In this document: positions 24,487 to 62,880 of the stretch, piece after piece
Layout of the letters: each line of letters starts with the position of its first letter
How positions within the stretch are numbered: the stretch's first letter is position 1
Assembly (NCBI GenBank): GCA_034440235.1
Contig: JAWXBR010000011.1
Span: 64,787 to 128,786 of the forward strand
From: a bacterium
GTDB lineage: Bacteria; Bacteroidota; Ignavibacteria; Kapaibacteriales; Kapaibacteriaceae
DNA length: 64,000 bases
Direction of reading: 5' to 3'
Program-made: the position numbers and the translations under genes
Notes under the pieces: model-generated
Seen by the model: the letters and a program-made list of their open reading frames with translations, nothing else
Told to the model about the DNA's origin: nothing
Database searches by the model: none

Positions 24487-25793
24487 GGTGTTGCCCGCAT
24501 CTTGTTAAATCGGTCGCGACGATTCTTTTGGTCTTCGATACGTATGACAGAACCGTTCTGAAGGCTCTTGCTTACAGCATTAAACGGAGCCGTAACAATA
24601 GACTCGCCCCCTTTTAGCCCCTTAACAATTTCTATGTAGCCTTGGTCGCTTATGCCTGTTTCTACGGTGCGCGACTGAACCTTCGTGCCGTTTACAATCC
24701 ACACAATCGACGGTGGCCGTTTGCTCTCTTCATCCTTGCGTTGCTCGGCCTTGCGACGGTCTTTTGGTTCCGATTCCGATGGGTTGAGGGTCTCGGTTTG
24801 CATAACATCCTGACGTACCGTTACTGCTTGAATAGGAACAGAAAGCACATCTGATTTTGTTTCGGTTTCGATGTCTACGTCGCAGGACATACCCGGACGC
24901 ATGCGAAAGTCTTTGTCGATCATGCGAATGCGAACCTGAAAGTTCACGACTTCTTCTTGCGAGCCTTGTCCACTTATCCGGGGCGAATGACTCACTTCGT
25001 AAACTATTCCACGAAATGATTTATCGCGCAATGCATCGATATGAATGCGTGCTGTATCGCCAACCTGTATAACAGCGACATCGTTTTCGTCGACGTCAAC
25101 CCATGCATTCATGGTATTCAGATCGGAGATGCGCAAGAGTTCGGTGCCTTGCATCTGTGCTGTTCCAACAACTTTCTCACCGCTTTCGACAGCGAGGTAT
25201 GTAACAACGCCACTAATCGGAGAAAAAATTGTCGAGCGACTTGCCTGTTGTTGCGACTGCTGCAGACCACCAATCGATCGTTGATAGTCGGCCTGTGCTT
25301 GAGCCTGACGTGATACTGCTGTTAAGTAGGCTGCGTTTGCTCGATCGTACTCTTCGCGTGTGGCAAAGTCTTTCTTCACGAGTTCATTCACGCGCGATAA
25401 GTCGGCCTTTGTCCTATCAACTTCAGCTCTGTACATAGTAATGGCCTGACGTGCCGATTCTGCGGCGCTGCGAGACTGTCCGACCTGCGATTCGAGCAGG
25501 TCTGGCTGTATACGCACCAGTAGCTGTCCCTTGCGCACTGTATCGCCGTCACGCACACCTAAATGAATGATTTCGCCCGAGGCTTCAGAGGAAACTTTCA
25601 CCATGAATTCTGGCTGAAGCTTGCCTATGGCGCTTACGGTCTGCGTAATCGTGCGGCGTTCGACGTTGTCTACGCTCACGAGTAACGGACCTTCCTTGCT
25701 GAGCATGACAAACCATGCAACTGCCGACACAACAAGTGCGGCAACAACAAGCAATACGATAATGAGTACGCGTCTAGATTTTTTCTTTGCCAT
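24483..25793 (-). CDS. Periplasmic adaptor subunit of the ABC efflux system (HlyD/MacA family)
   Basis: An N-terminal TM anchor, a coiled-coil hairpin and a beta-barrel/MP domain typical of the membrane fusion protein family. Confidence 0.8.
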
Positions 25794-25797
25794 GATT

Positions 25798-27158: not shown

Positions 27159-28076
27159 CTAGTTGTGTCGGCGAGCTAACAGGAAACGACGTGCTGGATT
27201 CGCCGATCGCAATTCAAGCAATTGCGCATCAACTGCTGTCTTTTGGGTCGCATCACGTTTGATCCCATTCTTAGTTTCAATTTCCAACTTGTTTTCTGTT
27301 GTTGCAAAAACATGGTACGGCACGCTCACCAGATCGTCGAACGAAAGCTTACCGTAGGCGTTGATTGTTGCATACGTCACCATGGACATCCCATCCGTAG
27401 CCACCTTGTGGCTGCCCCTTGCCGTCATCGAATACTGTAACTGACGAAATGCACGTCCGACGGTGTCCACCTTATCGAGTACTCTCCAGAGAGTGAGGTG
27501 ACCAATGACGGCTGGCGGTATGCCGTTTTCTGTCAGTTCAACCGTGTCTTCGGCTATCCAGCTCTGATTCTGTCGCCCGCAAGACTCTCCTAAAGGGGGC
27601 AGAAGAAAGGGGCTGAACGGACCTCCTGGGTGTATGGCAATGACATCTGGGAGTGTTACAGCTGCGTATGAGCGCTTGCCCACAGTGTCCATTACAAACG
27701 TCACCACACGGTCGACCCAAGGATGTGTTGGCCGCTCGACCGTTGTATCAACGGTGCCCTGACGTTCAACCGACGACGTCATAATCTGACGAAGCCAGAA
27801 TGTCGAAGTCGTTGCACTATCGCATATCACAAGTACTCTCGACTTACGAAGTTTGAGAATACGTCCCTGACCCTGCACCCATAAACTGTCGCGCGCATCG
27901 ATATCATAAACAAGTGTATCACCTGTTTCGAACTTATAGGCAAAACACAAGGTGTCCTTCCCGAGTGGGGCAGGTTGATAACCTTCTTGAAGTTGAATCT
28001 GTGCACTAACAGGTACACAGAGGAGCAGAGCCATCCAGAGTACTGCGGTGCGTGCAATAGCCTGAGGCTGAGTCAT
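27159..28076 (-). CDS. Secreted protein of unknown function (305 aa) inside the efflux operon
   Basis: Signal peptide (...LLLCVPVSAQ). No recognisable family. It overlaps the upstream ORF by 1 nt. Confidence 0.5.
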   Translation of the reverse strand: MTQPQAIARTAVLWMALLLCVPVSAQIQLQEGYQPAPLGKDTLCFAYKFETGDTLVYDIDARDSLWVQGQGRILKLRKSRVLVICDSATTSTFWLRQIMTSSVERQGTVDTTVERPTHPWVDRVVTFVMDTVGKRSYAAVTLPDVIAIHPGGPFSPFLLPPLGESCGRQNQSWIAEDTVELTENGIPPAVIGHLTLWRVLDKVDTVGRAFRQLQYSMTARGSHKVATDGMSMVTYATINAYGKLSFDDLVSVPYHVFATTENKLEIETKNGIKRDATQKTAVDAQLLELRSANPARRFLLARRHN

Positions 28077-42195: not shown

Positions 42196-42360
42196 AAACA
42201 CGGTAAGGCATTAGCGATGCCATATTTCCGTACAAAATGGCATTGCCATTGCCATATCTCCTTTCATAATGGCATTAGAGTTACCAAATTTACTTGCAAA
42301 ATGGCATTTGAGTTGCCAAATTTACTTGCAAAATGGCATTAGCGTTGCCATATTTGCGGT
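42196..42360 (+). promoter_or_regulatory. Array of five tandem sigma54-like -24/-12 motifs (TGGCAT-N5-TTGCC, which are also TGGCA-N7-TGCCA palindromes), spaced about 35-40 bp, ending 10 bp before the ATG of the AAA+ ATPase gene
   Basis: GGCATTAGCGATGCC; TGGCATTGCCATTGCCA; TGGCATTAGAGTTACCA; TGGCATTTGAGTTGCCA; TGGCATTAGCGTTGCCA. Each is followed by (A/T)ATTT...CAAAA. Confidence 0.5.
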
Positions 42361-43497
42361 ATGGATCACTCTAGACATAGACTGTTAACTCCGCCTAAGG
42401 GCCATTTTTTCCTGTTGGGACCTAGGGGAACGGGCAAAACGTTATGGACACAGCAGGTTTTTCTGGATGCTCTGCGGATAGATTTACTCGATCCGGAGAC
42501 ATTTCGTGTGTTCGCTGCGGGTACTGAGAGATTGAGGGACGTAATAGCTGCACATCCTGAAGTAAAAACGGTTGTCATCGACGAGATTCAGAAGCTTCCG
42601 ACGCTTCTGGAAGGTGTTCATCTATTGATTTCAGAACAGGTGAAGTACCAGTTTGTGCTTACTGGTTCTAGTGCCAGAAAACTTCGACATGGAAATGTTA
42701 ACCTACTGGGCGGACGTGCGGTGATGCGGACAATGCATCCGTATGTAGCCAAAGAACTTGGTGCCGATTTCGACCTCGATGAACATTTAAAAACGGGACT
42801 TGTGCCTGTTGTAGTGGAGTCGCAAAACCGACACGACACGTTACGTGCATACAACGCGCTGTACATACGCGAAGAAGTCTTTGCGGAAGGACTTGTTCGC
42901 AACATGGAACAGTTCGCACGATTCCTCGAGGCGATAAGCTTCTCACAAGGGTCGATGCTAAACGTCACGAACGTTGCGAGCGATTCTTATGTCAAACGGA
43001 AAACAGTTGAGAACTACATTGAAATTCTCGAAGACTTGATGCTTGCGTTTCGTCTGACTCCGTTTACGAAGCATGCAAAACGTCAACTGGTGTCGCACCC
43101 TAAGTTCTATTTCTTCGATGTCGGTGTATACCGCGCTAACCGTCCATCGGGAAGACTCGATGACGCAGGATCTGTCGAAGGCATCGCTCTTGAAACGATC
43201 GTTGCGCAGCACCTAAAAGCTCGATCCGACATAGCTCGTGACAATAGTAAACTCTATTACTGGCGAACAAGATCGGGTGTTGAAGTCGATTTTGTTGTGT
43301 ACGGTAATGACATCTTCGAGGCCATTGAGGTGAAGAATAGTAGTAGGGTACGTCCAGAAGATTTGAGGGGGCTTCGAACGTTTATCGAAGACTACCCGCA
43401 GGCTAAAGCCACTTTGTTGTATCGAGGAAAAGAGAGCCTGATGCAGCACGGTATACTCATCATGCCCATCGATGAATGGTTGCCGACGTGTTACTAA
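42361..43497 (+). CDS. AAA+ ATPase with C-terminal DUF4143-type domain (ATP-binding protein)
   Basis: Walker A (LLGPRGTGKT) and Walker B (VVIDEIQK). The C-terminal region is typical of DUF4143 (...YYWRTRSGVEVDFVV...IEVK). Confidence 0.75.
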   Translation: MDHSRHRLLTPPKGHFFLLGPRGTGKTLWTQQVFLDALRIDLLDPETFRVFAAGTERLRDVIAAHPEVKTVVIDEIQKLPTLLEGVHLLISEQVKYQFVLTGSSARKLRHGNVNLLGGRAVMRTMHPYVAKELGADFDLDEHLKTGLVPVVVESQNRHDTLRAYNALYIREEVFAEGLVRNMEQFARFLEAISFSQGSMLNVTNVASDSYVKRKTVENYIEILEDLMLAFRLTPFTKHAKRQLVSHPKFYFFDVGVYRANRPSGRLDDAGSVEGIALETIVAQHLKARSDIARDNSKLYYWRTRSGVEVDFVVYGNDIFEAIEVKNSSRVRPEDLRGLRTFIEDYPQAKATLLYRGKESLMQHGILIMPIDEWLPTCY

Positions 43498-43531: not shown

Positions 43532-45655
43532 CTAGGGCGTCCGCGCCGTTATCCGAATGCTTCTGTTCAAGAAGCGACCTTGTGGCGTTAGGTCGGCGAA
43601 GCGCGAGCCTGTGGTCGAGGTCTCGATAGTAAACGTGTTTCCTACCAGCGAACGGATGAAGGCTTCGGTGACGCGTGCGCGTTGCTCGGAGAGTTCTTTG
43701 TTGCGTGTGTCGGTGCCGAGGATGTCGGTGCTGCCGAAGACGGTCAGGGCGGAGCCGGAGGGGAGGCGCTCGGTGAGCTGACGTAGCAGAGAACGGACGT
43801 CTTCGTTGAGCTCTGAGGAGTTGTAGTCGAAGCGCAGAATGGCTTCGAAGTCTGTCGTCTTGAGGTCGATGCGACGTCGTGGAAGCTTCGAGGCGTCGAC
43901 ATCTGCGAAACGTTCTGCAAATGCGCTGCCGGCTTCGGCTGTTACACGCACACGTGCCGATGTTGCATCGGCGGGAAGTGCAGCGCGGAAGGGAACGTTG
44001 ACGTTGCTGGACTTGATTGCAACGGTTGTGTCGGTGTTGCCAACGTGCACACGCATGGTGCTGCCCACGACGTTAATGCCTGCGGCCTTGACGTTCATGG
44101 TGCCACGCACTTCTGAGAATTGCTGCACGGTGACCCATTCTTGAAGTGGAGCGTTGGTAACAACGAGGTCGACGCGACGGTTTTCTTCGCGTCCTGCTGG
44201 AAATTCCTGGTTCGAAGAAATGCGCGGTGCAAGTAACGCACGCGTTTGTATGCGCGATGCTTCTACGCCTAGGTCGACAAGCACTTGTTTTACACTTTGT
44301 GCGCGACGCTCTGAGAGTGCTGTGCCTTGTGCTTCGTCCGCGCCGCTCGTAGCCCCTTCGAGCACGACCCTTCCCTGAGGATTACGCTTCAGGATGTCTG
44401 CAATACGCACGAGTACCCACGAGTGCGCTTGTATTGGGTCGGAAGACGGAATGCTGCCATCGTTCGAACGGCGATAGGTTGTGGGAATAGTCGACGCAGT
44501 ACTGTCGAAGAACACCGCATTGATGATCGGTGCCGTTGCAAGAAGTTCGTCGCCCGTTACAACTTCGGCCGATACGAGCGTGGGTTGGTCGAGTGCGATG
44601 GTGGGCGGACGTGTGTCGATTGCAATTGGCGGTGGCGGTGGAATTGGGTCGGGCTTCTTTGGGGTAGGGGGCTCCTCGGCTTTCGATTTAAAGCCGAAGC
44701 GTATGCCCACCTCTGCGCGAATGCCGAGGAGTTTCCAGTCGGCATCGGTGAGCATAGAGTTGAAGAAGTAGTCGAACGATAGTTGTGGGACGATTGCAAT
44801 TGTATTGGAAACAGTTATAAAAGATTCCAATGATGCACTTGCGCCAAACATTGCACTTGCACGCGTAGAAAACACACCCGATGCAATCGGCCGCTGCAGT
44901 GAGCTTTGTCCGTTCACCAAGAACGTTGCGTTGCCCTGGTCGGAAATTGATTCGATTTGCTCGAAGCGGCTGGAGAGGGGAAGAGCGATACGCGGACCAA
45001 TCACGAGTCCGAGCGATCGCGATTCATAAGAACCAAGAAGTGCGATGCGCACATCGGGTTGAATTTCTAGAAACGAGAGACTTGGTTGTAGCTCGACGGT
45101 TGTTGTGAGTTCTAAATCGGTGTTTGTTGCTGTGTCGCGAACCGGATAAACGTTTGTGCGCTTGAATTGTCCGGAGCGTCCCGAAAAGCCAAGTCCGATG
45201 CCAAAACCCCAAGTGTCGGCGGCACGCAATTCGAGAATTGCGTTAAAAGACGGACCCGCCCCGTTACCGAATTCGAACTGACCACAATCGATTACATCGA
45301 GTGAACTGCTGAACGATGCGCTATACGTTGTGAGAGCAATGCCCCCTTGCACACGCATGGCAAACGATTCACGCTGTGCGGATGCCGTCGTTAGGGCAAG
45401 CAACACACATACGGAGCTTAAAAAGCCCCTTACCAGAAAGGCACTAAAAGAGCCCCTTACCGAAAAGGCGTTAAAAGAGCCCCTTACCGAAAAGGCGTTA
45501 AAAGAGCCCCTTACCGAAAAGGCGTTAAAAGAGCCCATTACAAGCATTGTTCGAACGTTGGGTCGTGTCATGGCCGACAAAGATAGCTGGCGTAATGTCA
45601 CGGGAATGTTACGACGCCAAGACGAGTGGCGAACGGCATCACGGCAGGGCGACAT
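43532..45655 (-). CDS. Outer-membrane beta-barrel protein with a Pro-rich linker and two OmpA-like domains, a paralog of 6299-8533. The N-terminal region carries a 10-aa tandem repeat (GSFNAFSVRG x4).
   Basis: Signal peptide (...LSSVCVLLALTTASAQ) is preceded by the repeat. A beta-barrel region is homologous to 6299-8533. Linker PPTPKKPDPIPPPPPIAIDTRPP. OmpA modules (VVLEGATSGADEAQG...RRAQSV; LTVFGSTDILGTDTRNKELSEQRARV). The start codon is uncertain. Confidence 0.65.
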   Translation of the reverse strand: MSPCRDAVRHSSWRRNIPVTLRQLSLSAMTRPNVRTMLVMGSFNAFSVRGSFNAFSVRGSFNAFSVRGSFSAFLVRGFLSSVCVLLALTTASAQRESFAMRVQGGIALTTYSASFSSSLDVIDCGQFEFGNGAGPSFNAILELRAADTWGFGIGLGFSGRSGQFKRTNVYPVRDTATNTDLELTTTVELQPSLSFLEIQPDVRIALLGSYESRSLGLVIGPRIALPLSSRFEQIESISDQGNATFLVNGQSSLQRPIASGVFSTRASAMFGASASLESFITVSNTIAIVPQLSFDYFFNSMLTDADWKLLGIRAEVGIRFGFKSKAEEPPTPKKPDPIPPPPPIAIDTRPPTIALDQPTLVSAEVVTGDELLATAPIINAVFFDSTASTIPTTYRRSNDGSIPSSDPIQAHSWVLVRIADILKRNPQGRVVLEGATSGADEAQGTALSERRAQSVKQVLVDLGVEASRIQTRALLAPRISSNQEFPAGREENRRVDLVVTNAPLQEWVTVQQFSEVRGTMNVKAAGINVVGSTMRVHVGNTDTTVAIKSSNVNVPFRAALPADATSARVRVTAEAGSAFAERFADVDASKLPRRRIDLKTTDFEAILRFDYNSSELNEDVRSLLRQLTERLPSGSALTVFGSTDILGTDTRNKELSEQRARVTEAFIRSLVGNTFTIETSTTGSRFADLTPQGRFLNRSIRITARTP
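45418..45545. repeat. 30-bp tandem repeat of about 4 copies (AAAAGAGCCCCTTACCGAAAAGGCGTTA) in the 5' coding region of the OmpA-like gene
   Basis: Seen in the sequence. In-frame, encoding GSFNAFSVRG repeats located before the signal-peptide hydrophobic core. Confidence 0.9.
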
Positions 45656-47945: not shown

Positions 47946-48413
47946 CTAATCGTTAACGAAGGGCTCTACTGGAATTCCAAGTAATGTGCGGCACTCAGCT
48001 TCTGGAGTTGTAGACGGGTCGTCGATGTAAAGCTCAATGAATGGAGCCTCGACAATTGTTTTGTCGTGATGACTGACCATTGCTCGGAGCTTGTTAAACG
48101 ATTCTTTAATGCCTTCGTACGAACCGACGTGTGTTAGCTGTGCATACTCGAGCTCGGGGAACTCACGCACCTGCACGCGATCATCACCCTCTGTGCCGTA
48201 GGGCACTTGCACCGCAACATCGTAGCGCAATGCATCGGAAGAAACAGTTGCGGGATTGTCATACGAGAATCCCATCATGACTTCGGGGGCAAGCTCGCGC
48301 TCGGTAGCCCAGGCCCAGAGTTCGCCGAAGATTGGACCGGCGTTTGTGTACGGACCCACATGGCGGATGCATGCGACGTTGTACGGACCCAATGGGTCGA
48401 CTTGAATATCCAT
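47946..48413 (-). CDS. GyrI-like small-molecule-binding domain protein
   Basis: About 155 aa with a duplicated beta-alpha-beta-beta fold pattern typical of GyrI-like/AraC effector-binding domains. Start and stop codons overlap with gcvP. Confidence 0.5.
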   Translation of the reverse strand: MDIQVDPLGPYNVACIRHVGPYTNAGPIFGELWAWATERELAPEVMMGFSYDNPATVSSDALRYDVAVQVPYGTEGDDRVQVREFPELEYAQLTHVGSYEGIKESFNKLRAMVSHHDKTIVEAPFIELYIDDPSTTPEAECRTLLGIPVEPFVND

Positions 48414-51346
48414 TATGCGTACTCCTCGATACTAGGGCATGTACAAATAAGCACACGGTCGCCGTATGCATTGTCTACACGGCCAATGCTTGGCCAGAAT
48501 TTTCTATCGCGTACCCATGAGAGCGGATACACAGCCTGCTTGCGCGTGTACGGATGTGTCCATTCGTCCGCCGTTGCCACATACTGCGTATGCGGAGCGT
48601 TTTTAAGCACGTTGTCTTTAGCATCGACAACACTTAGGCACACATCTTCAATTTCTTTACGAATGGAAAGTAACGCGTCGCAGAACCTGTCGATCTCGGC
48701 CTTGCTTTCGCTTTCCGTTGGCTCAATCATAATTGTTCCGGGAACAGGGAAGCTTAGCGTCGGAGCGTGAAAACCATAATCCATAAGGCGTTTTGCGATG
48801 TCCTCTGCTTCGAGTCCACCACGTTGCTTGAATTCGCGTAGGTCGACAATCATCTCGTGCGCAACGCGACCCTTCGCACCCTTGAACAAAATGCTGTAGT
48901 GGCCTTCGAGGCGCTTCGCAATGTAATTGGCATTAAGAATCGCAACGCGCGTTGCATCGGTGAGCCCCTTACTGCCCATCATGGCGATGTATGCGTAGCT
49001 GATAAGCAGAATAGATGCTGAGCCCCAAGGTGCGGCAGAGACGGCGCCTGCTGCAGGAACGCCATTGCCGACAACATGTACGCCATTGCCGACAACAGGA
49101 ACGCCATGGCCGACAACATGTGCGCCGGTTTGTGACCTAGTGGGGGAAATAACGGGGTGACCAGGGAGGTAGGGGGCTAGCTCGGTGGTAACGCAGATCG
49201 GACCCATACCGGGACCGCCACCGCCGTGCGGAATGCAGAATGTTTTGTGAAGATTAAGGTGACATACGTCGGCACCTATGGTGCGCGGACTTGTTAAGCC
49301 CACTTGCGCATTCATGTTTGCGCCGTCCATGTACACACGTCCGCCGTGCTCGTGAATAATCGAGCAGACTTCCTTAATCGATTCTTCGAACACACCGTGT
49401 GTTGAAGGGTACGTTACCATTAATGCAGCAAGATCTTTTGCATGTGCATCGGCCTTCGCACGCAAGTCGTCCATATCGACGTGTCCGTCGGCGTCTGCCT
49501 TCACAACCACAACCTTCATGCCTGCCATGACAGCCGACGCAGGGTTTGTGCCGTGTGCGCTGCTCGGTATGAGCACAATATTTCTATGCGACTGTTTGTT
49601 TGCGATGTGCAGAGAGCGAATTGCAAGGAGTCCGGCATACTCGCCCTGCGCACCTGCATTCGGCTGAAGCGAACACGCATCGAAGCCAGTGATTTCGCAC
49701 AACCAGTGCTCGAGCTCGTGAAAGATTTGTGTGTAGCCAGCAGTTTGTTCGCGTGGCACAAACGGATGAATTGCGTTGAACTCGGGCCACGTGAGCGGAA
49801 TCATCTCGGCCGTTGCATTCAACTTCATTGTGCACGAACCAAGCGAGATCATGCTATGTGTAAGCGAGAGGTCTTTGTTTTCGAGGCGTTTCAAATACCG
49901 CAACATTTCGTGTTCGGTGCGGTGCTCATGAAATGTCGAATGAGTTAGATAGTTCGATGTACGATGAAGAGATGTGGGGAGTCCGGCATTCTTCGTTAGA
50001 CGTGCACCACTCGTTGGCGACACATCATACTTCGAAGATGCAACTACATCAAAACACGCTAATACATCGGCAAGGTCTGCTGCTGTTGTTGTTTCGTCGA
50101 ACGATATGCCAACAGTTTGTTTTGCGTCGTTATATGCAAAGTTTATTGCTTTAGAAGTTGCAATTGCTCGCACTGCGTTTGTATCGGCAGCAACAGTAAC
50201 AGTGTCGAACCAAGCGCCGTTCACGATGGTGTGTCCTGCGGCAATCAGAGCTTCGACTAGTGCATTCGAAAGCGCGTGTACCTGGTGCGCAATGTTGCGA
50301 AGTCCGTCGGGACCATGATACACCGCATACATCGCAGCAACATTCGCAAGCAATGCTTGTGCTGTGCAGATGTTCGATGTTGCTTTGTCGCGACGAATAT
50401 GTTGCTCGCGTGTCTGCAATGCCATCCGATAAGCGAGATCGCCTTGTGCGTCTATGCTCACCCCAATGATACGTCCGGGCATAAGGCGCTTGTACTGCTC
50501 ACGCGTGGCCATGAAGGCCGCATGAGGTCCGCCATAACCGAGTGGCACACCAAACCGCTGCGTCGACCCAACAGCAACGTCGGCACCAAACTCGCCCGGA
50601 GGCACAAGCAATGTTAATGCAAGCAGGTCGGTACCAACCGTTACAAGTGCTCCGCCTTCGTGTGCGGCATCGCAGAATGTTTTGTAGTCGTGGATGTCAC
50701 CATCAAGTGTCGGGTACTGCACGTACGCACCGAACACAGTGCCATCGAATGTTGCACTGCGCCAATCACCAACTTGAATGTTAATGCCTAGTGGCTCGGC
50801 ACGAGTTTTCAACACGTCGAGTGTTTGTGGAAACACATTTGTGTCGACAAACAATGTCAGTGCATCTTTCGCATTCGCACCACGCGCAGCATACATCAAA
50901 TGCATTGCTTCTGCCGCAGCAGTTGCTTCATCGAGAAGTGACGCATTTGTGATCTCGAGTTTTGTGAGATCGATAATCATCGTCTGAAAATTCAACAACG
51001 ATTCGAGACGACCCTGCGAAATCTCGGCCTGGTATGGCGTGTACTGTGTGTACCATCCCGGATTCTCTACAACGTTGCGCAGAATTACAGCAGGAGTAAT
51101 CGTGTCGTAGTAACCCATGCCGATGTACGTGCGCCAATTTTTGTTGCGCGCACCAACAGCACGCAAATGTTTTAGCAATTGCGTTTCCGTTAGGGCAGGG
51201 GGCAGGTCGAGGGACTTCTTCAGCCGTATGTCGGCAGGAATTGTCTCGTCGATCAGCGCATCGAGTGTGGATGCACCCACAACACCGAGCATGGAAGAAA
51301 GATCGTCTTGTGAACGTCCGAGGTGACGTGAAGCAAAGTCAGTCAT
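48413..51346 (-). CDS. gcvP: Glycine dehydrogenase (decarboxylating), glycine cleavage system P protein. It contains an in-frame tandem-repeat insertion.
   Basis: Full-length single-chain GcvP (977 aa) with the PLP-lysine region. An extra roughly 25-aa loop, [26 protein letters not shown], is encoded by a 21-bp x3 DNA repeat. Confidence 0.9.
49059..49121. repeat. 21-bp in-frame tandem repeat x3 (ACGCCATTGCCGACAACATGT) inside gcvP
   Basis: Seen in the sequence. It encodes HVVGNGV-like heptads. Confidence 0.9.
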
Positions 51347-51396
51347 GTGGCAGTATGTCGCAGTATGTCAATGATCAATGGTTAATTTTCTTGTAC

Positions 51397-52728
51397 ATGA
51401 TAAAAACCCTTGCTCTTCCTTTGTGTCTCGTCGTCGTGACACTTGCCTGTTCGTATGACAAAGTCTCGGCGCAGGATTTTCTGCAACGAAAATACGCCAC
51501 ACGTGTCGAGCGCGACATCGTCTACGGAACCGCCACCGGCTTTGCGGGCAAGTTGGATACCCTGAGATTGAATTATTGGAAGCCCCACGCCGACGGTAAT
51601 CCGAGGCGGCCCCTTATCATTTTTGTGCATGGAGGGGGCTTTACAGGGGGCTCTAGGACTGACTTCGACGTGTTATGCGAGGGATACGCACAGCGCGGAT
51701 ATGCGGCCGCAACCATAAGTTATCGGTTAGGCTTTCATCCGCCTCCTCTCATGGCGAACCCTTACGCCTACGACACTGCCGAGGTCGTACGTGCGGCCTA
51801 CAGAGCGTCGCAGGACCTGTTCGGAGCTGCAAGATTTCTTGTCAAACGTGCATCGTTAGACTCGGTGAGCGTGTCGTCAATGATTATCGGCGGCGCCAGC
51901 GCCGGAGGCATTACTGTATTGCAGGCCGCATACATTTCAGAGAATGAACGCTACGGTTGTACACGAGCGTTTGCAGATGTGCCGGGCATTGGGGTTGCCG
52001 GAAAACGTCCGGACCTAGGCCCAACCACAGGCACCCTTCACGCCGATGCGGCAACTCCACGCATCCTTGCCGTCGTAAATCTGTTCGGCGCAATTCCGGA
52101 CACGTCGTTTATTGAACGCGCGGACGATCCTGCGATGTATCAGTATCACCAGACAGGCGACCCCGTCGTGTCATGCGTGTACGCAAAGGGCTTATGGAGT
52201 TATCCGTTCGGCATTCCGGACAACTATTACTTTGTGCACGGCTCCTGCAACATAAAAAAGCGTCTCGATAACCTCGGCTACACATCTGCACGGCATCGCT
52301 CTTGGATTTTTAATGGTAGTGTGCATGGCTTTCACGGCGCAGCAGCAGTCGAAATAGATATCGCAGATTTTTTAGCACCACTTACGCGTGACGCGCTCAC
52401 ATCGGTCGACGATGATGCCTTCGAAAGCGAGCGCAACGATTCATCGAAGGATCGCACTAATAACGACCTAACTAGTAAAGACCTAACGAATAAAGACCGA
52501 ACTAATAAAGACCGAACTAATAAAGACCGAACTAATACTGTGATGTCCGATGGAGCGACAGTAGTTGTTATGGACCTAGCTGGACGTCTAGTCTTTCAGG
52601 GCACCGATGCTCATCCCTCAGGTGCTCATTTCCCTAGTGCTCATCTCACAAGAATGCTGAACCTGCCCATTGGGGCTTACATCATGAAAATTGGTGTTGA
52701 AACACGGTTATTTCTAGTTCTTCGTTAA
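51397..52728 (+). CDS. Secreted alpha/beta-hydrolase (esterase/lipase family) with a tandem-repeat linker and T9SS C-terminal sorting domain
   Basis: Signal peptide (MIKTLALPLCLVVVTLACS). HGGGF oxyanion motif and the GGASAGG nucleophile elbow. Linker (NDLTSKDLTNKDRTNKDRTNKDRTN). CTD (...VVVMDLAGRLVFQG...GAYIMKIGVETRLFLVLR). Confidence 0.7.
   Translation: MIKTLALPLCLVVVTLACSYDKVSAQDFLQRKYATRVERDIVYGTATGFAGKLDTLRLNYWKPHADGNPRRPLIIFVHGGGFTGGSRTDFDVLCEGYAQRGYAAATISYRLGFHPPPLMANPYAYDTAEVVRAAYRASQDLFGAARFLVKRASLDSVSVSSMIIGGASAGGITVLQAAYISENERYGCTRAFADVPGIGVAGKRPDLGPTTGTLHADAATPRILAVVNLFGAIPDTSFIERADDPAMYQYHQTGDPVVSCVYAKGLWSYPFGIPDNYYFVHGSCNIKKRLDNLGYTSARHRSWIFNGSVHGFHGAAAVEIDIADFLAPLTRDALTSVDDDAFESERNDSSKDRTNNDLTSKDLTNKDRTNKDRTNKDRTNTVMSDGATVVVMDLAGRLVFQGTDAHPSGAHFPSAHLTRMLNLPIGAYIMKIGVETRLFLVLR
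52450..52537. repeat. 15-bp in-frame tandem repeat (AATAAAGACCGAACT x3 plus degenerate copies) in the esterase linker
   Basis: Seen in the sequence. Confidence 0.85.
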
Positions 52729-52737: not shown

Positions 52738-53856
52738 ATGACACGAAAACGCATTGTTCGCTGGACGATAATTATTGCTGTGCTCATTGCTGCCATCGTA
52801 GTGCTGAGGCTGGTTACGAGCAACAAGGACGGTGCCCAAGGTGGCGCGGGCGGCGCTTCAAAAGGACCTCCTGGGGGAGGCCCTTCTGGAGGAGGACCTT
52901 CAGGCGCACCACTGAAAGTTTCTGCAGTGGTTATCACCCCAAGCCCTTTTTCCGAGACCCTTTCCCTAACAGGATCGATAATGGCGAATGAGCGCATCGA
53001 GGTACGGAGCGAAGTGGGCGGACGTATTACGCGCATCGGATTTCAGGAAGGGGCGCGAGTACGCAAGGGGCAAGTGCTTATACAGATGGACGATGCGGAA
53101 TTGCGCGCGCGGTTCTCAAAACTCGGACGTCAGCTTGTGCTCGATACAGACAAACAGAAACGTTATGAGGCGTTAAAAAAAATCGACGGGGTGAGTCAGG
53201 AAGAACTCGATGTAATTGACGCGCAGGTCGACATCCGCCGCGCAGAAATCGAAGAGCTGCAGGCGCAAATGGCGAAGACATTAATACGTGCTGCGTTTTC
53301 GGGTCGCGCCGGACTTCGTGAAGTGAGTGTAGGCGCAGTGATAACACAATCGACGCTCATTACGACACTTGCCGACGACAACACATTAAAACTCGAGTAC
53401 ACAATTCCTGAGCGGTATGCAGCAGGCATTCGTGTTGGTGATAGGGTTACGTTTACTGTACGCGGACGTGGTGTAGACGAGCAACAAGTGGCAACGATCT
53501 ACGCTCTCGAACCCGGTGTCGACGCTGCATCACGCGCAGTACGCGTGCGTGCGCGCATTGCACACGGAAAGTCGGATGCTGCAATGATTCCGGGAATGTT
53601 TGCCGACGTAAAACTTACACTGTCGAATGTCAACGATGCACTCATGGTGCCTGCAGAAGCAGTGGTGCAGGACATGGAAGGAGCATCGGTACTTATTGTG
53701 CGCAACGGAAAGGTGCAGCCAACCAAGATTGAATTGGGCGGACGCACTCCGTCGCATGTGCGCGTTACAAGTGGCGTACATGCTGGCGACACCGTGCTTA
53801 CAAGCGGCTTGTTGATGGTCAAGAAAAACATGCCGGTGAATGCGGAGGTCCGTTGA
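52738..53856 (+). CDS. Efflux RND transporter periplasmic adaptor subunit (AcrA/MexA family)
   Basis: A TM anchor, a Gly/Pro-rich spacer, and the lipoyl, beta-barrel and MP domains of RND membrane fusion proteins. Confidence 0.8.
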   Translation: MTRKRIVRWTIIIAVLIAAIVVLRLVTSNKDGAQGGAGGASKGPPGGGPSGGGPSGAPLKVSAVVITPSPFSETLSLTGSIMANERIEVRSEVGGRITRIGFQEGARVRKGQVLIQMDDAELRARFSKLGRQLVLDTDKQKRYEALKKIDGVSQEELDVIDAQVDIRRAEIEELQAQMAKTLIRAAFSGRAGLREVSVGAVITQSTLITTLADDNTLKLEYTIPERYAAGIRVGDRVTFTVRGRGVDEQQVATIYALEPGVDAASRAVRVRARIAHGKSDAAMIPGMFADVKLTLSNVNDALMVPAEAVVQDMEGASVLIVRNGKVQPTKIELGGRTPSHVRVTSGVHAGDTVLTSGLLMVKKNMPVNAEVR

Positions 53857-56800
53857 ACCTCAGCACCCTCACCATCCACCGTCCCGTACTCAGCATCGTG
53901 CTGAGTACGCTTATCGTTCTGCTCGGTGTTGTTGGCTATCTGTTTCTCGGCGTTCGACAATTCCCGAACGTCGACCCGCCGAATATTTCCGTTACTACTA
54001 CCTACCCGGGTGCAAACGCAGACGTTATAGAGTCGCAGATAACACTTGTGCTCGAAGAATCGATTAACGGCATCGATGGTATTCGTTCGCTCACGTCGCA
54101 GTCATCGGACGGACGTTCTACTATAACAGTTGAATTTCAACTAGGTGAAGATCTAGAAGCCGCAGCGAACGATGTACGCGACCGCGTAGAACGTTCGAAA
54201 CGTAATCTGCCTCCTGATGTAGACCCGCCTGTAGTTGCGAAGGCCGATGCAAACAGCTTTATCATCGTAATGACTGTGCAGAGCGATGTGCGTCCGTTAA
54301 ACGCTCTCAGCGACTTCGCTGCAAACGTCCTGAAGGACCGCATGCAGACCATTGAAGGTGTAGGCAACATCATGATCTGGGGTGAACGCAAGTATGCCAT
54401 GCGCCTCGTGCTCGACCCGTCGAAGCTTGCGTCGTACCGCCTCACCACGACCGATGTGCGTCAGTCTTTACAACGCGAGAACGTCGATCTGCCAGCGGGA
54501 CGCCTCGAGGGCACGTCCACAGAGCTTTCCGTCCGAACGATCGGACGCATGTCGTCCGTCGAGGAATTCTCGAACCTCATCCTCCGCTCTGGCGCTGGCT
54601 CGACCGTGCGTGTACGCGACGTCGCACGTGTGTATCTCGGCGCAGAAAACGAACGCACCATTCTTAAACGCGATGGTGTTGCAATGGCCGGACTTGCCGT
54701 CACACCGCAACCCGGCGCAAATCAGGTTGACATTGCAGATGAATTCTATCGTCGGTACGAAGCGTTAAAGCAAACAGCACCCAAGGACATCACACTCGAC
54801 ATAGCGTTCGATAACACAAAGTTTATTCGTCGCGCAATTCTCGAAGTCGAAGAGACTCTTGCCATTGCGTTTGGACTTGTTGTCCTCATCATCTTCCTCT
54901 TTCTTCGATCGTGGCGCGCAACCATCATTCCCGTTGTTGCAATTCCTGTCTCGTTAATCTCCACGTTCTTCTTCATGTGGGTGTGTGGCTTCTCGATTAA
55001 CATTCTTACGCTGCTGGGCATTGTGCTAGCTACCGGACTTGTTGTAGACGATGCCATTGTTGTAATGGAAAACATTTTCCGTCGCATCGAAGAAGGCGAG
55101 TCACCCATGGAAGCGGGCGAGAAGGGGGCTTCGGAGATTTACTTCGCCGTTATCTCTACAACCATTACGCTTGCAGTTGTGTTTATTCCGGTGATTTTTC
55201 TGCCAGGTCTGACTGGACGTCTCTTCAGAGAATTTGGCGTTGTTGTAGCAACATCGGTTCTTGTATCTGCATTCGTTTCGTTAACACTCACTCCCATGAT
55301 GAGTGTTAAGCTACTGCGTCACACAGAAAAACAATCGTGGCTCATGCGAGTTACAGAACCCTTTTTCGTGTGGATGAACAGCACATACGCACGCACGCTT
55401 TCGTCGCTCATAAAGCGCCCCATCATTGCAGTACTTGCAATGGTCGCTTCGATTGTGCTTACGATTGTTATTGGCTCGCAACTAAAAAGCGAACTCGCTC
55501 CACTCGAAGACCGCAGCCTTTTGACAATTAATCTTACGGCACCAGAGGGCACGGGCTTCAATCGCATGGATGTCATCATTGACACGATGCAGGCACGCGT
55601 CTCGCGTGCTGTACCCGAGAAGGCATTGCTTCTGACCGTTACGTCACCTTCGTTCCAATCGAATGCGAGCAACACTGGCTTCGGACGCCTCGCACTTGTA
55701 GACCCAGACCAGCGCACACGCACACAAACGCAGATTGCACAAGCCATTGGCAAGGTAATGTCCACCAACACCGATGTACGTACGGCAATCATTCCCGAGC
55801 AAACGGTATCGACGGGCGGACGTGCGGGACAGCCCGTGCAGTTTGTGATTATGGCGAGTCAGCTTTCAGAGTTACGCGAAGTGTTGCCTGCCTTTATGGA
55901 TCGTGCCATGAAGCACTCGTCACTTGCAATGGCAGACGTCAATCTGAAATTCACAAAACCAGAACTCACTGTTAGTATCGATCGTGCACGTGCGCGCGAA
56001 CTCGGAGTTTCGGTGCTTGACATTGCAGATGCCATGCAGGCTGGACTTGCCGGACAGCGTTATGGATTTTTTGTCCGTGCAGGAAAACAATACCAGGTCA
56101 TCGGCGAATTCCAACGTGACTTGCGAAACACCCCAGACCGGTTGCGCGACCTACAAGTGCGCTCACAAGACGGCAGTATGATTTCGCTTGGTAGTCTTGT
56201 TACGCTCAAAGAACAAAGCACACCTCCGCAGTTATTCCGATTTAATCGCTCGGTTGCGGCTACGGTGTCCGCCGGACTTCCTCCGGGCAAAACCATTGGT
56301 GATGGTGTAAAGGCTATGCAAGAAATCGCAGCAGAGACATTGCCTTCGCACTACACTACTGCACTTACGGGCCCAGCCCGCGACTTCTCCGAAAGCTCCT
56401 CAAGCCTCGTCTACGCCTTCCTCATTGCACTTGCATTTGTGTACCTCATCCTTGCCGCACAATTCGAAAGTTTTGTAGATCCGTTTACAATCATGTTCAC
56501 CGTGCCCCTTGCGCTAGCCGGTGGAGTGCTCTCGTTATGGATCGGCGGCGAGACCCTTAACATCTTCTCGGAGATTGGTGCAATTGTGTTAATCGGACTC
56601 GTCACGAAAAACGGAATTCTTATTGTCGAGTTTGCGAACCAGAGGCGCGAAGCCGGACTCTCTGTCGTCGACGCTGCGCTCGACTCCGCATCAACCCGAT
56701 TTCGTCCGATCCTCATGACCTCCCTCGCCATGATCCTCGGCGCCTTACCCATCGCACTCTCCCTCGGCGCAGCATCTGGCAGTCGTGTCGGGTTAGGGGT

Positions 56801-58271
56801 CGTAATTGTAGGGGGCTTGCTTCTGGCTACATTCCTAACGCTGTACGTCATCCCCACGGTGTATGTGCTCATGTCGAAGCTCAAGCGCAAGAAAACACAC
56901 ACCCACGAATCAGCGGCAACAACACCAGATCCTGGTACACCAGGTGTTTCAGATTCTGCAATCAGTCGTGCAATAATAATTTTAGTTACAATAGGTGCTT
57001 TGCTGTTCGCGCCTACTTCGAGTGCGCAAGAAATTCTCAGTATGGATGATGCCGTTGGCATATCGATACAGCGCAACTACAGCATCCGCACGGCACGGCT
57101 AGACTCTTCGTCCGCCGCTCTCATGCAGGGTTCGCAGTACGCTCCATTTCTGCCAACGCTCAACCTAAATGCAACGGGTGCCCGTGGAAGCAACGACCTC
57201 TCGCAAAAGACTGTGTCGGGTGTTAATACAGAGCGCACAGGCGTTGGCTTTACGAACTTTAATGCAAATGCAACGCTGTCATGGACCGTTTTCGATGGCC
57301 TGAGCATGTTCGCCGAGAGAGACAGAGTAAACAGTCAGTCGCGTGCCGAATACGAACGTGTCCGTAGCAGAATGTCCTTCACCGTCGCCGACGTCATCAG
57401 TTCCTACGGCGCAATCGTCGCTACTCGCAGATCTATCGAACGCGCAACCACCACGCTCGACATCGCAGAACGTCGGTTCCAAATTCTTTCGCGCAGTCGC
57501 GATGCGGGTGCTGTTGCCGGCACCGACGTGTCGCAAGCAGAGATCGACCGCAACACCATACAAGCAATGCTCGTGCGCTCGCGTACCGACCTTGCAACAA
57601 CGTCGACATCCCTTAACGCAATGCTCGGAAGACAGTCCAGGCAGCCCCTTGCCATAGACACTGCGTTCGTTGTTCCCTCATTGCCATTGCTCGATTCACT
57701 CGAACGTGCTGCAGATGCACGCAACCCCGAAGTGCTCGCTGCAGAGCGTGACATCGAAGTTGCATCGGCATCGGTCCGTATGGCAGATGCTGCCTACATG
57801 CCCCGCGTAGCACTTAATGGTCAGTACCAATACACCAACAACAACACCGACGCCGGCTTCATTCTCGAGAACCGCACAAACGGTTGGAATGTAGGCTTCA
57901 CCGGAACGTGGAATTTGTTTAACGGCTTTTCAGACAAGTATCGTTCAGACGTTGCACGCGTCGACCTCGAAAGCAAACGCCTAACACTCGACGACATGCG
58001 TCTGCAAACACGCGCACGGTTAAGTCAGGCATACGCACGTTACGAGCAAGGCATAACACTGCAAACCCTCGAACGTGCCTCATTTATAGCCGCACAACGC
58101 AACGCAGAGGTCGCGCTCGAGAAACTTCGTCTTGGCACCATCCGCGACATCGAAGTACGTCAGACCCAGCTCACATTATTCGAAATAGGGGAGCGCCTCG
58201 CGCGCATCGAATACGAAACCCTCGTCGCAGCCACAGAAGCCATGCGATTGAGCGGGGCATTAGTTAGGTAA
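53853..58271 (+). CDS. RND efflux permease (AcrB/HAE1-like, about aa 1-1030) continuing in-frame, without a stop, into a TolC-like outer-membrane factor domain of about 430 aa preceded by a Met-less signal-peptide-like segment
   Basis: AcrB N-terminus (MNLSTLTIHRPVLSIVLS...) with 12 TM helices and two porter domains. After ...LMSKLKRKKTHTHESAATTPDPGTPGVSDSAIS comes RAIIILVTIGALLFAPTSSAQE, then OMF-type helix/strand repeats to the end. Confidence 0.7.
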   Translation: MNLSTLTIHRPVLSIVLSTLIVLLGVVGYLFLGVRQFPNVDPPNISVTTTYPGANADVIESQITLVLEESINGIDGIRSLTSQSSDGRSTITVEFQLGEDLEAAANDVRDRVERSKRNLPPDVDPPVVAKADANSFIIVMTVQSDVRPLNALSDFAANVLKDRMQTIEGVGNIMIWGERKYAMRLVLDPSKLASYRLTTTDVRQSLQRENVDLPAGRLEGTSTELSVRTIGRMSSVEEFSNLILRSGAGSTVRVRDVARVYLGAENERTILKRDGVAMAGLAVTPQPGANQVDIADEFYRRYEALKQTAPKDITLDIAFDNTKFIRRAILEVEETLAIAFGLVVLIIFLFLRSWRATIIPVVAIPVSLISTFFFMWVCGFSINILTLLGIVLATGLVVDDAIVVMENIFRRIEEGESPMEAGEKGASEIYFAVISTTITLAVVFIPVIFLPGLTGRLFREFGVVVATSVLVSAFVSLTLTPMMSVKLLRHTEKQSWLMRVTEPFFVWMNSTYARTLSSLIKRPIIAVLAMVASIVLTIVIGSQLKSELAPLEDRSLLTINLTAPEGTGFNRMDVIIDTMQARVSRAVPEKALLLTVTSPSFQSNASNTGFGRLALVDPDQRTRTQTQIAQAIGKVMSTNTDVRTAIIPEQTVSTGGRAGQPVQFVIMASQLSELREVLPAFMDRAMKHSSLAMADVNLKFTKPELTVSIDRARARELGVSVLDIADAMQAGLAGQRYGFFVRAGKQYQVIGEFQRDLRNTPDRLRDLQVRSQDGSMISLGSLVTLKEQSTPPQLFRFNRSVAATVSAGLPPGKTIGDGVKAMQEIAAETLPSHYTTALTGPARDFSESSSSLVYAFLIALAFVYLILAAQFESFVDPFTIMFTVPLALAGGVLSLWIGGETLNIFSEIGAIVLIGLVTKNGILIVEFANQRREAGLSVVDAALDSASTRFRPILMTSLAMILGALPIALSLGAASGSRVGLGVVIVGGLLLATFLTLYVIPTVYVLMSKLKRKKTHTHESAATTPDPGTPGVSDSAISRAIIILVTIGALLFAPTSSAQEILSMDDAVGISIQRNYSIRTARLDSSSAALMQGSQYAPFLPTLNLNATGARGSNDLSQKTVSGVNTERTGVGFTNFNANATLSWTVFDGLSMFAERDRVNSQSRAEYERVRSRMSFTVADVISSYGAIVATRRSIERATTTLDIAERRFQILSRSRDAGAVAGTDVSQAEIDRNTIQAMLVRSRTDLATTSTSLNAMLGRQSRQPLAIDTAFVVPSLPLLDSLERAADARNPEVLAAERDIEVASASVRMADAAYMPRVALNGQYQYTNNNTDAGFILENRTNGWNVGFTGTWNLFNGFSDKYRSDVARVDLESKRLTLDDMRLQTRARLSQAYARYEQGITLQTLERASFIAAQRNAEVALEKLRLGTIRDIEVRQTQLTLFEIGERLARIEYETLVAATEAMRLSGALVR

Positions 58272-60978: not shown

Positions 60979-62880
60979 CTACCACACCACACTGGTTGAA
61001 TCACCCAACTTCAAAACGTATAAACCCTCAGCAATAAACGGCAGCGGTATGGTGAGTGTTAATGACCCCGACACGTCCGCCGCATACACCCGGCGTCCGA
61101 GCATATCAAACAACTCAACGGTCTGTGTTTGTTTGATCATCGACTTGTCGATCGCAATGTTGAGTGTCTGCTTATCACGATCGATGTACGCTGAGATGGT
61201 GGATGAATGATTATTGTTTGCAGTTGCATCTCCCGAATTCGCGTCGTCGGCGTTTGCATCTCCCGAATTCGCGTCGTCGGCGACATCTGTCGGACCTGCC
61301 AGGAGGTCTTGCACGGCGTGCATTTTGTAGTTGCGGTAGGGTTTGGTGTAATCGTCGGTTAGGCCCCAGCAGCCGTAGCGATTATAGCCGGAGACGAGGG
61401 TGAAGTACATGGCGAGGCCACCGTCGAGGGCTTGCCAGCCTTCGCGGTAGTTGTATGTGACGACGTCGCGCATGCGCTCTGTGCGGTGCGATGAAATCTG
61501 GGCCGAGAGGTTGGCGTTGAGTCCGAACGGGACGTGTGCGCCCCCTTCGTACGAAGTACAGCCCCCTACGAGATTCCACTGTTTTGCTTTGTTGGTGTGG
61601 TTGCGCCGATAGGTCGATAGCGATGTATTTGTTAGCTGCGCAGTAATGTCTTCAATCATGCCTTCGTTAATCTGTAACGGGTCTGGGTTGTCGGCCCGCG
61701 TAGAGCCGTGGTAGAGGGCCGTGCTTGTTGCGTAGATGAAGTTGCGGGGCAAACCAAATACGCGGTCTATGTAACGAAGGTGATTATCACTTCTTCCATG
61801 ATATGCATGTTGTCCGGCCAGAACAACACGAATACGTTTATTAACTGCGTTTGCACCAAACACCATTCCGAACCACTGCGACAGTTGCACCGTGCGATGT
61901 GCGTATTGTTCGTCGAACGTTATGCCGCGGGCGGCAGAGGCGGCGGCGTTGTAGGGTCCGTGTGTTAGCTGCGTCGGACTCCATACTTCGTTGCTGTTTT
62001 CGACATAAATGTTAATTGACGGGTCTAGCGAATCCTGCAGCATTCTCGCGAGACTCGTTACATAACCCGAGTCGCACGACATGTGAATGTTAATCCAGAT
62101 GTCCTTCTTCAGAATGTTTGCAAGCTCTACAATGATGTCCCAGCTCCACCCTTCGCCTCGACCTTGAAGGCTGGCCAGTGGCACTTGCGAAGCGGACGCT
62201 CTGGTCTTGCGCATCGACCACTGCATCACTGTCGGGTACGTTGGCTCGCCGCTCCAGATGTTCTGCACATTGTAATATCTGTAACACGTAAAGTCAGCGG
62301 CCTTGCATAGAGCGAGGTAAGCGTCGGTAAACGTCTGCGTGGCAAATCGGTCGTAACCCGGACGATGTACAACCAAATTGGTAATACCCGAGTTTGCAGC
62401 ACCAGCGGGAAGTGCCTTCGTATTCGAGAATTGCAAAAACACGAGGCCGTGATTTGCACTGTTCGCAGCACCAACAACAAGGTCGAACGTAGAAATATTC
62501 GAGACTGCGTTGTACTGCATGTTTTCGACCGAAACAGCAGTGCCCGTTGCGACCACATCTGCACTACCGGTGAAGTGCGCCAGATATCGTCCGCTGTAAT
62601 CGACCCGGTACACTTCTGGGTCGTCGATCGTCTGCGTCCATTCCGTCGCGGGACGTCCGTCGAACAGCACAAGCGAAAAGTCGCTCTGCGGCCAGCCATT
62701 GGCATCAAACGACGTCGCACCCGAATACCTGTTTGTGTGCTTTACCACATCCACAAACGCACCCTGTGCGTCTAGATTCACTCCGAGATTGACAGGGGGC
62801 TGCGCAAGCGCAGAAGGGGCAACTGACAGCACGAAGAGGACGATGGCTACTATGCGAACTGACTTCATACATAACTCCAA
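60979..62880 (-). CDS. Secreted protein with T9SS C-terminal sorting domain and a tandem-repeat linker. Possibly a TIM-barrel glycoside-hydrolase-like enzyme.
   Basis: Signal peptide (...VAPSALAQ). Linker DDANSGDANADDANSGDATANNN. CTD ...VELFDMLGRRVYAADVSGSLTLTIPLPFIAEGLYVLKLGDSTSVVW. An ENSNEVW motif is reminiscent of a GH catalytic NE(P) motif. This last point is speculative. Confidence 0.55.
   Translation of the reverse strand: MELCMKSVRIVAIVLFVLSVAPSALAQPPVNLGVNLDAQGAFVDVVKHTNRYSGATSFDANGWPQSDFSLVLFDGRPATEWTQTIDDPEVYRVDYSGRYLAHFTGSADVVATGTAVSVENMQYNAVSNISTFDLVVGAANSANHGLVFLQFSNTKALPAGAANSGITNLVVHRPGYDRFATQTFTDAYLALCKAADFTCYRYYNVQNIWSGEPTYPTVMQWSMRKTRASASQVPLASLQGRGEGWSWDIIVELANILKKDIWINIHMSCDSGYVTSLARMLQDSLDPSINIYVENSNEVWSPTQLTHGPYNAAASAARGITFDEQYAHRTVQLSQWFGMVFGANAVNKRIRVVLAGQHAYHGRSDNHLRYIDRVFGLPRNFIYATSTALYHGSTRADNPDPLQINEGMIEDITAQLTNTSLSTYRRNHTNKAKQWNLVGGCTSYEGGAHVPFGLNANLSAQISSHRTERMRDVVTYNYREGWQALDGGLAMYFTLVSGYNRYGCWGLTDDYTKPYRNYKMHAVQDLLAGPTDVADDANSGDANADDANSGDATANNNHSSTISAYIDRDKQTLNIAIDKSMIKQTQTVELFDMLGRRVYAADVSGSLTLTIPLPFIAEGLYVLKLGDSTSVVW
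61216..61275. repeat. 30-bp in-frame tandem repeat x2 (GCATCTCCCGAATTCGCGTCGTCGGCG..)
   Basis: Seen in the sequence, inside the linker of CDS 60979-62880. Confidence 0.85.

Follow-up and report, generated by a model that had tools for sequence, protein, structure and literature searches.

A permease and its outer-membrane channel in one reading frame: a candidate bacterial polyprotein with an internal signal peptide that has no start codon

Tripartite efflux pumps are described as assemblies of three separate polypeptides, and the closest described counterparts of the locus presented here are the mfp-rnd-omf operons of the MexAB-OprM type (AcrAB-TolC in the case of the proteins), which have the same three components and the same gene order. 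The locus lies in a stretch of bacterial DNA of 64,000 nucleotides (referred to as a whole as the window), which covers positions 64,787 to 128,786 of the forward strand of contig JAWXBR010000011.1, in assembly GCA_034440235.1. Whereas the MexAB-OprM-type systems are made as separate polypeptides, the permease of the window, which belongs to the resistance-nodulation-division (RND) type, and its channel, an outer-membrane factor (OMF), are encoded in one frame, and the signal peptide of the channel is internal. The best explanation of this arrangement, which can be held with considerable confidence from the sequence, is a natural polyprotein, in which the internal signal peptide would be cut by signal peptidase I (SPI), releasing the channel.

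The open reading frame (ORF) in question occupies positions 53853..58271 of the + strand, where the ORF listing and the translation both give a single protein of 1472 aa, with a TTG start and zero internal stops. This fused ORF is almost certainly genuine. The corresponding NCBI record, MDZ4744909.1, is named ‘efflux RND transporter permease subunit’, and annotation calls fused ORFs of this kind merely ‘RND permease’. The original prediction was that no stop codon separates an AcrB-type permease from its outer-membrane factor, and the ORF listing, the translation, and the Pfam and NCBIfam domains are all in agreement with this. The operon consists of the gene of the adaptor, a membrane fusion protein (MFP), followed by the RND-OMF fusion, and its parts are the following (the arrow marks a cut).

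52738..53856, + strand: periplasmic adaptor (MFP), with TIGR01730 RND_mfp at E 1e-61, and Pfam HlyD_D23 and HlyD_3
53844..53848, + strand: Shine-Dalgarno-like GGAGG, 4 nt 5' of the RND TTG, from sequence reading and a motif scan
53853..56876, + strand: RND permease (HAE1, AcrB/MexB-type), aa 1-1008, from Pfam ACR_tran and the alignment with solved pumps
56877..56969, + strand: predicted cytoplasmic linker, K1009-R1039, from the codon listing
56970..57008, + strand: A1040-F1052, AIIILVTIGALLF, the 13-residue hydrophobic core (‘13th helix’) of the internal signal peptide
57009..57029, + strand: c-region, APTSSA↓Q, with the predicted site of signal peptidase I
57027..58271, + strand: outer-membrane factor, TolC-like, no lipobox, Q1059-R1472 and the stop codon

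The adaptor gene (52738-53856) is the first in the operon and adjoins the permease, as befits an RND pump, and its TGA stop codon shares bases with the RND TTG start (TTGA). The permease half matches Pfam ACR_tran (PF00873) from aa 4 to 1007, which corresponds to positions 2-1020 of the 1021 of the model (949 bits, E 3e-285), and aligns end to end with the solved HAE1 pumps 7wlv (E 3e-174), MexB, CmeB, and AcrB, with E-values that range from 1e-149 to 1e-174. The proton-relay motifs VVDDAIVV and TKNGILIVEF are aligned with those of the solved pumps, while GLVVDDAIVV, LVTKNGILIVEF, and RFRPILMTS match the corresponding motifs of 7wlv, so that both the relay of transmembrane helices TM4 and TM10 and the RxRPILMT motif of TM11 are present; in AcrB numbering, the relay residues are D407/D408 and K940. 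The scores nevertheless miss the cut-offs of the NCBIfam subfamilies, with 1053 bits against 1250 for NF033617 (‘multidrug efflux RND transporter permease subunit’) and 752 against 940 for TIGR00915, and the permease is, by these scores, a diverged member of HAE1, rather than a close equivalog.

A free-standing RND permease has approximately 1000-1050 aa and a short cytoplasmic tail, whereas here the frame runs 464 codons further, into the OMF. The last residues of the RND moiety form TM12 (...TLYVIPTVYVLMS). In the established structures, the C-terminus of AcrB is cytoplasmic, and the alignment of the RND part with solved pumps that have a cytoplasmic C-terminus fits the topology that had been proposed for the junction at the outset, that is, a 13th helix inserted N-in/C-out.

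The OMF domain comprises two Pfam OEP (PF02321) repeats (E 1e-42), which extend to aa 1468, and the NCBIfam TolC model TIGR01844 spans aa 1063-1470. The AlphaFold2 model of this domain, based on 16 sequences, has a predicted local distance difference test (pLDDT) value of 88.8, with strands at 44-61, 67-90, 260-275, and 279-294, in keeping with a TolC protomer, which has four beta-strands and long helical hairpins. In Foldseek, it reaches a template-modelling score of 0.86 to Escherichia coli TolC (1ek9), over approximately 419 columns, and of 0.80-0.82 to OprM (0.82 for 7akz). As modelled, the OMF part is a complete TolC-fold protomer, beginning where mature TolC begins. The junction has no Cys, its site being SSA↓Q, and there is thus no lipobox in the window OMF, which points to a TolC-like domain, rather than a lipoprotein. 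An ordinary OMF has a gene of its own and an N-terminal signal peptide initiated by a start codon, whereas no stop precedes the domain here. Both halves of the protein look functional, given the full length and relay motifs of the RND part and the complete TolC fold predicted for the OMF.

The junction itself reads ...YVLMSKLKRKKTHTHESAATTPDPGTPGVSDSAISRAIIILVTIGALLFAPTSSAQEILSMDD. Its linker includes the basic tail of the pump (KLKRKK), a low-complexity stretch rich in Thr, Pro, Gly, and Ser, and R1039, which provides the n-region charge. The elements of a signal peptide then follow one another, with a positive n-region (R1039 and KLKRKK), the core AIIILVTIGALLF, which falls within the usual length of about 7-15 residues, small residues at -3 (S1056) and -1 (A1058), and Gln at +1, which places the predicted cut between A1058 (57024-57026) and Q1059 (57027-57029). 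A signal peptide is expected at the N-terminus, whereas this one starts at residue 1039-1040 of 1472. It had been claimed that no ATG, GTG, or TTG precedes the core; the codon listing has none in the 42 codons S1008-A1049, to which the claim is best restricted, given that the closest canonical codons are a GTG (V1005) and an ATG (M1007) within TM12, and a TTG (L1050) within the hydrophobic core. Since TM12 and the core are separated by neither a stop nor a canonical start, each ribosome translating the pump goes on to translate the channel. The +1 frame of GCAATAATAATT does hold the TAA TAA that had been pointed out there, although nothing requires a programmed frameshift onto these stops, and the homologues do not conserve the ATAATAATT run.

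Full-length fusions make up 72 of the 120 best database matches (1419-1499 aa, both Pfam domains, 44-100% identity), and these 72 homologues come from metagenome-assembled genomes (MAGs) labelled Ignavibacteria, Bacteroidota, and Cryomorphaceae, many of them being found on several contigs. The layout of the junction is common to all 72, with the end of TM12 (...YVLLSRLKR), a linker, a hydrophobic core, a small-x-small site, and a mature start that resembles LTLDEAV, while the linker varies from 2 to 50 residues and is often rich in Thr, Ser, Pro, Gly, or His. These 72 junctions were compared with the ATG-initiated signal peptides of 137 unfused relatives. The median core length is 11.5 aa in the fused set and 12 aa in the unfused one, the best 9-residue (maximum) hydrophobicity is 3.02 and 3.01, respectively, and the net charge of the 10 residues preceding the core is +2 in both. 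A small-x-small↓Q site follows the core in 67 of the 72 fused junctions (93%) and in 130 of the 137 unfused signal peptides (95%), and the remaining five fused junctions have AxA↓D-type sites.

These frequencies agree with the Q-rule for signal peptidase I substrates, for which the mean Q-value is 71% in the Bacteroidetes and 77% in Ignavibacterium album (PMC5837995). Signal peptides ending in A↓Q are also found in four other exported proteins of the window, that is, a free-standing OMF (25798-27150, - strand), two cargo proteins of the type IX secretion system (T9SS), and a protein of the OmpA family. The junction is, then, a signal peptide in every respect but the initiator Met; its likeness to a signal peptide with an A↓Q site, as first described from the window, extends to core, hydrophobicity, charge, and site rates equal to those of the unfused orthologues. 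It shares with the ordinary Q-rule signal peptides of the Sec/SPI pathway the basic n-region, the 13-residue core, the S-x-A motif, and the Gln at +1, but differs from them in being internal and without an initiator codon. An ordinary signal peptide, moreover, is released and degraded, whereas this one would stay covalently attached to the pump after cleavage.

In the proposed biogenesis of the polyprotein, TM12 would leave the basic tail of the pump (KLKRKK...R1039) in the cytoplasm, and the core A1040-F1052 would enter the Sec translocon N-in/C-out, as a 13th helix, with the TolC-like domain being threaded into the periplasm. Signal peptidase I would then cut at SSA↓Q, between A1058 and Q1059, and the freed channel, probably with a pyroglutamate N-terminus, would move to the outer membrane, trimerise, and dock onto the pump via the adaptor, while the linker and the signal-peptide helix would remain on the pump as a C-terminal appendage. 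A fusion of this type would secure 1:1 synthesis without a second initiation event.

The same junction has been recovered repeatedly. Two proteins from independent JGI metagenomes, P0270 and P0271, are identical to that of the window at 1471 and 1468 of the 1472 positions, respectively, with an identical junction. When aa 800-1472 were searched exhaustively with HMMER against 1.84 billion representatives clustered at 50% identity, the best 150 matches included approximately 12 fused representatives of full length, together with several spanning fragments, down to 27% identity. The more distant fusions include clusters labelled Fibrobacter and Acidobacteriota. One fused cluster has 17 members, the sole named member being labelled Fibrobacter sp., while the other, P0230, has 10 members from several assemblies, with the named members labelled Acidobacteriota/Bryobacteraceae, and is annotated at JGI as ‘HAE1 family protein/NodT family efflux transporter outer...’. 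In P0230 (L165, ENA ERZ27296184 contig k141_705657), a lipobox (...LAALTLSG↓CMMGPNYK) precedes a lipoprotein channel of the NodT/OprM type, and a lipobox (...AAIFFSG↓CTQGPNYK) is also found before the NodT/OprM-type channel of P0173 (L164, GCA_964477075.1), a single-member cluster. P0230 and P0173 are independent RND-OMF fusions, each with the processing signal that suits its type of channel.

It is likely, although this broader claim is made with somewhat less assurance than that of the polyprotein itself, that the fusions represent obligate polyproteins, in which the channel cannot be made except as the C-terminal portion of the pump and is freed at an internal signal peptide without a Met, by signal peptidase I in the window, and by Lgt and LspA in the lipobox fusions, such as that of the Acidobacteriota-labelled cluster. 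This arrangement would have evolved repeatedly, would be undescribed, and would leave a 13th helix on the pump.

The fused genes can be set against unfused loci recovered by scans of species-representative genomes and metagenomes with alignment of the OMF domain, in which mostly unfused distant relatives are found among the matches listed. At least 160 loci were obtained, at least 148 of them with the RND C-terminus directly 5' of the OMF on the same strand, and usually with an adaptor gene before it; at least nine of these 148 are fused. Further fused DNA came from five exact-protein look-ups, which gives 15 fused loci with DNA in all. Among the matches listed, 137 unfused loci have the order MFP-RND-OMF and an OMF with an ATG-initiated signal peptide, and in these loci, the RND stop and the OMF ATG lie a median of 8 nt apart (range -17 to +180), overlaps of 1-17 nt being frequent.

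The unfused orthologues of the Kapabacteria/Chlorobi group (L163 and L161/L162) lie in the same neighbourhood as the window (gcvP ... MFP-RND-OMF), with fumarase downstream in the relatives. Their RND proteins are 66-69% identical to that of the window, and their channels start with a similar A↓Q or G↓A signal peptide. Unlike the single frame of the window, however, these loci have two genes, with an overlap of 4-8 nt between the RND stop and the OMF ATG, each of which lies in its own frame. In L163 (Kapabacteria, GCA_018882895.1), which has the order gcvP - HMA - MFP - RND - OMF - fumarase, the RND end (...GGAHA and the stop) overlaps ATGCGTAG by 8 nt, and a GGAGG is found before the OMF ATG, while in L161/L162 (CP129493.1), the overlap between RND and OMF is ATGA (4 nt). 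L166 and L167, which are fused, share their neighbours with these syntenic unfused orthologues. Given pairs of rnd and omf genes that overlap or lie so close together, a single indel near the overlap suffices for fusion, and the fused gene probably arose from a tightly coupled or overlapping rnd-omf pair, through stop loss or a change of frame.

In a neighbour-joining (NJ) tree of 236 RND domains, the protein of the window falls in a clade of 77 sequences, 63 of which are fused, with three nested unfused groups, and at least five further fused lineages are found among the unfused Bacteroidota relatives. The same fusion, when sought in orthologous loci, is thus present in most of the closest clade, and the loci are a mixture of fused and unfused states, rather than uniformly two genes. 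The idea that fusion is confined to one clade was rejected, given the separation of the additional fused lineages from the large, mostly fused clade. Fitch parsimony gives nine state changes, with an unfused root. Within the main clade, at least 30 changes in junction length, all of them in frame and without a stop, stand against three splits, which corresponds to a rough binomial P of ~8e-12 versus the neutral expectation of 1/3. On this rough reckoning, the in-frame changes show selection for continuity from at least the end of TM12.

The alternative that survives best, although it is improbable, is the separate translation of the channel precursor from a start inside the RND frame, either a near-cognate ATC, ATA, or ATT at 56961-56980, or V1005/M1007, with the continuous frame being incidental. 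Candidate starts do exist: the ATC of I1037, followed by SRAIIILV..., would make a textbook signal peptide, a GTG, TTG, or ATG is suitably placed in six of the 15 fused loci (L003, L004, L084, L063, L164, and L165), and at the coupled MFP-RND junction, the organism does begin translation at a codon other than ATG, namely TTG. With no stop in the RND frame, however, the fused chain is made anyway, and internal initiation could only add channel to that supplied by the polyprotein route. The 60 nt before the core hold no Shine-Dalgarno-like motif, in contrast with the GGAGG at the RND start, a comparison that is telling only for the window and L166, as most of the fused lineages have no consistent motif of this kind even at the RND start.

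Conservation also argues against a start of this type. The near-cognate codons are not maintained, and the linker of P0004, which is 84% identical, is KRTKAAA, with no I, M, V, or L. A Met lies between TM12 and the core in only six of the 72 fused homologues, and five lack M, V, and L altogether. At the DNA level, nine of the 15 fused loci (the window, L001, L002, L081, L082, L083, L166, L167, and L168) have no ATG, GTG, or TTG in this interval, while the frame has been kept through the length changes noted above. Independent initiation would not appear, then, to be the main route of channel synthesis.

It is very unlikely that the hydrophobic stretch is an uncleaved signal-anchor, in other words, a permanent 13th transmembrane helix that keeps the TolC-like domain tethered to the pump in the periplasm. 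While the stretch is hydrophobic enough for insertion into the membrane, and its cleavage is deduced here from the site, the core of 13 residues (family median 11.5) has the length of a signal peptide, versus approximately 20 for a stable anchor, and the conservation of the peptidase site matches that in the free-standing orthologues. The lipobox of the independent fusions, in turn, is meaningful only if it is processed by Lgt and LspA. In the known structure of TolC, the N-terminus is far from the inner membrane, and the OMF here is complete and starts like mature TolC, so that the stretch after the core would be too short for the barrel to extend to the outer membrane. A merger of two genes by a sequencing or assembly indel, or by a recent inactivating mutation that left a non-functional ORF, has a negligible probability, even though a single indel in the overlapping stop and start of the unfused orthologues would produce such a fusion and some fused singletons keep the old ATG (L063, P0173), given that the same junction comes from three independent assemblies and recurs in the 72 fused homologues, which excludes the sequencing error first entertained, that the fused state has outlasted the divergence of a clade down to ~54% identity, in the course of which start codons disappeared and peptidase sites did not, and that both domains are intact and conserved.

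A number of points weigh against the polyprotein as the source of the channel. The precursor and its cleavage are predicted here from the sequence, and signal peptidase I would have to act on an internal signal peptide located behind 12 transmembrane helices, which is argued by analogy. The GTG of V1005 and the ATG of M1007 in TM12, or the near-cognate ATC, ATA, and ATT before the core, might yield a certain amount of OMF precursor independently, and a plausible start codon (GTG, TTG, or ATG) is still present in the six fused loci listed above, out of 15. The argument from frame continuity is the same for read-through and for a start inside TM12, and the event counts are approximate, coming from a simple NJ tree and from junction lengths measured by regular expression. 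Every fused example found is from MAGs, and none is from a cultured strain. Comparison with related sequences supports the original reading at each step that can be tested computationally.

The region of the pump operon has a number of additional features. The adaptor carries a low-complexity stretch rich in Gly, Pro, and Ser (GAQGGAGGASKGPPGGGPSGGGPSGAP) after its membrane anchor, which is similar in composition to the low-complexity linkers at some RND-OMF junctions (e.g., P0003). Just 5' of the operon, the 3' part of an alpha/beta-hydrolase ORF contains a 15-nt tandem repeat (52456-52537, 5.5 copies). This ORF (51241-52728, + strand, 495 aa as listed) overlaps the end of gcvP (48413-51346, - strand) by ~100 nt, and its true start is probably internal, at MIKTLALPLCLVVVTLAC..., which resembles the signal peptide of a lipoprotein.

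A further tripartite efflux operon in the window, of the MacAB type (21240-27150, - strand), is made up of the following genes.

25798-27150, - strand: free-standing OMF, 450 aa, ATG start, signal peptide ...LCMPMVA↓QK
24483-25793, - strand: adaptor of the MacAB-type operon
23737-24486, - strand: ABC ATPase of the MacAB-type operon
22484-23713 and 21240-22487, - strand: two MacB_PCD/FtsX permeases

An OMF of the ordinary, unfused kind is therefore encoded in this genome as well. Elsewhere, the BipA/TypA translational GTPase (28076-30793, - strand, 905 aa) is ~300 residues longer than usual, with an additional C-terminal part that has a weak match to DUF6263 (E 1e-4, under the Pfam cut-off); the protein may represent a further unusual fusion. 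Large secreted proteins with Por_Secre_tail, the sorting domain of type IX secretion, and A↓Q signal-peptide ends are encoded at 1509-6302 (+ strand) and 60979-62880 (- strand), and suggest an organism of the Bacteroidota/Ignavibacteria/Kapabacteria group with a T9SS. A 27-nt tandem repeat (45418-45541, 4.6 copies, 92% matches) lies at the 5' end of an OmpA/beta-barrel ORF (43532-45655, - strand), where it encodes SFNAFSVRG units just past the putative start, and a 32-nt repeat (42207-42355, 4.7 copies) lies directly 5' of the ORF at 42361-43497, with several more 17-30-nt tandem arrays being found in the window. Rfam and tRNA scans of the 64-kb window found no Rfam families at the gathering score and no tRNA genes.

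If the polyprotein reading is true, bacteria encode proteins destined for two membranes in one chain, separated by an internal signal peptide, for which few prokaryotic precedents are known. The stoichiometry of 1:1 and the co-localised export would be built in, which bears on the question of how pump and channel meet, and a pump with an additional C-terminal helix would be predicted. There would also be a class of exported proteins that is invisible to signal-peptide prediction based on the N-terminus. The syntenic locus, which occurs both fused and unfused, represents in turn a natural experiment on the costs and benefits of translational coupling versus fusion.

In functional terms, the system is an ordinary MFP-RND-OMF tripartite pump, and the working pump would presumably have the same 3:6:3 assembly as the known tripartite pumps; the novelty is in the architecture of its biogenesis. 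Targeted full-text searches of the searchable literature found no description of a natural RND-OMF fusion, and the domain-architecture databases probably list proteins with ACR_tran and OEP. In its accessible part, a large 2021 review on tripartite systems names SecDF along with other fusions, and no natural permease-channel fusion, the SecDF of Thermus being cited there as a fusion within the RND superfamily (PMC8277102). As in the window, the SecDF-type fusions bring neighbouring genes of one machine together in one polypeptide, but the parts that they join stay in one membrane and need no processing, whereas those of the window are destined for two membranes.

The nearest mechanistic precedent known to us is FbcH, the cytochrome b-c1 polyprotein of Bradyrhizobium japonicum, reportedly described by Thony-Meyer and others in 1989/1991, in which an internal signal peptide is said to be cleaved, and the next subunit released on the periplasmic side. 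In FbcH too, reportedly, a polytopic inner-membrane protein with a cytoplasmic C-terminus precedes the internal signal peptide in the same chain. Its families are unrelated to RND and OMF, and both of its products are said to stay in the inner membrane, in one complex, whereas the channel of the window would have to leave for the outer membrane.

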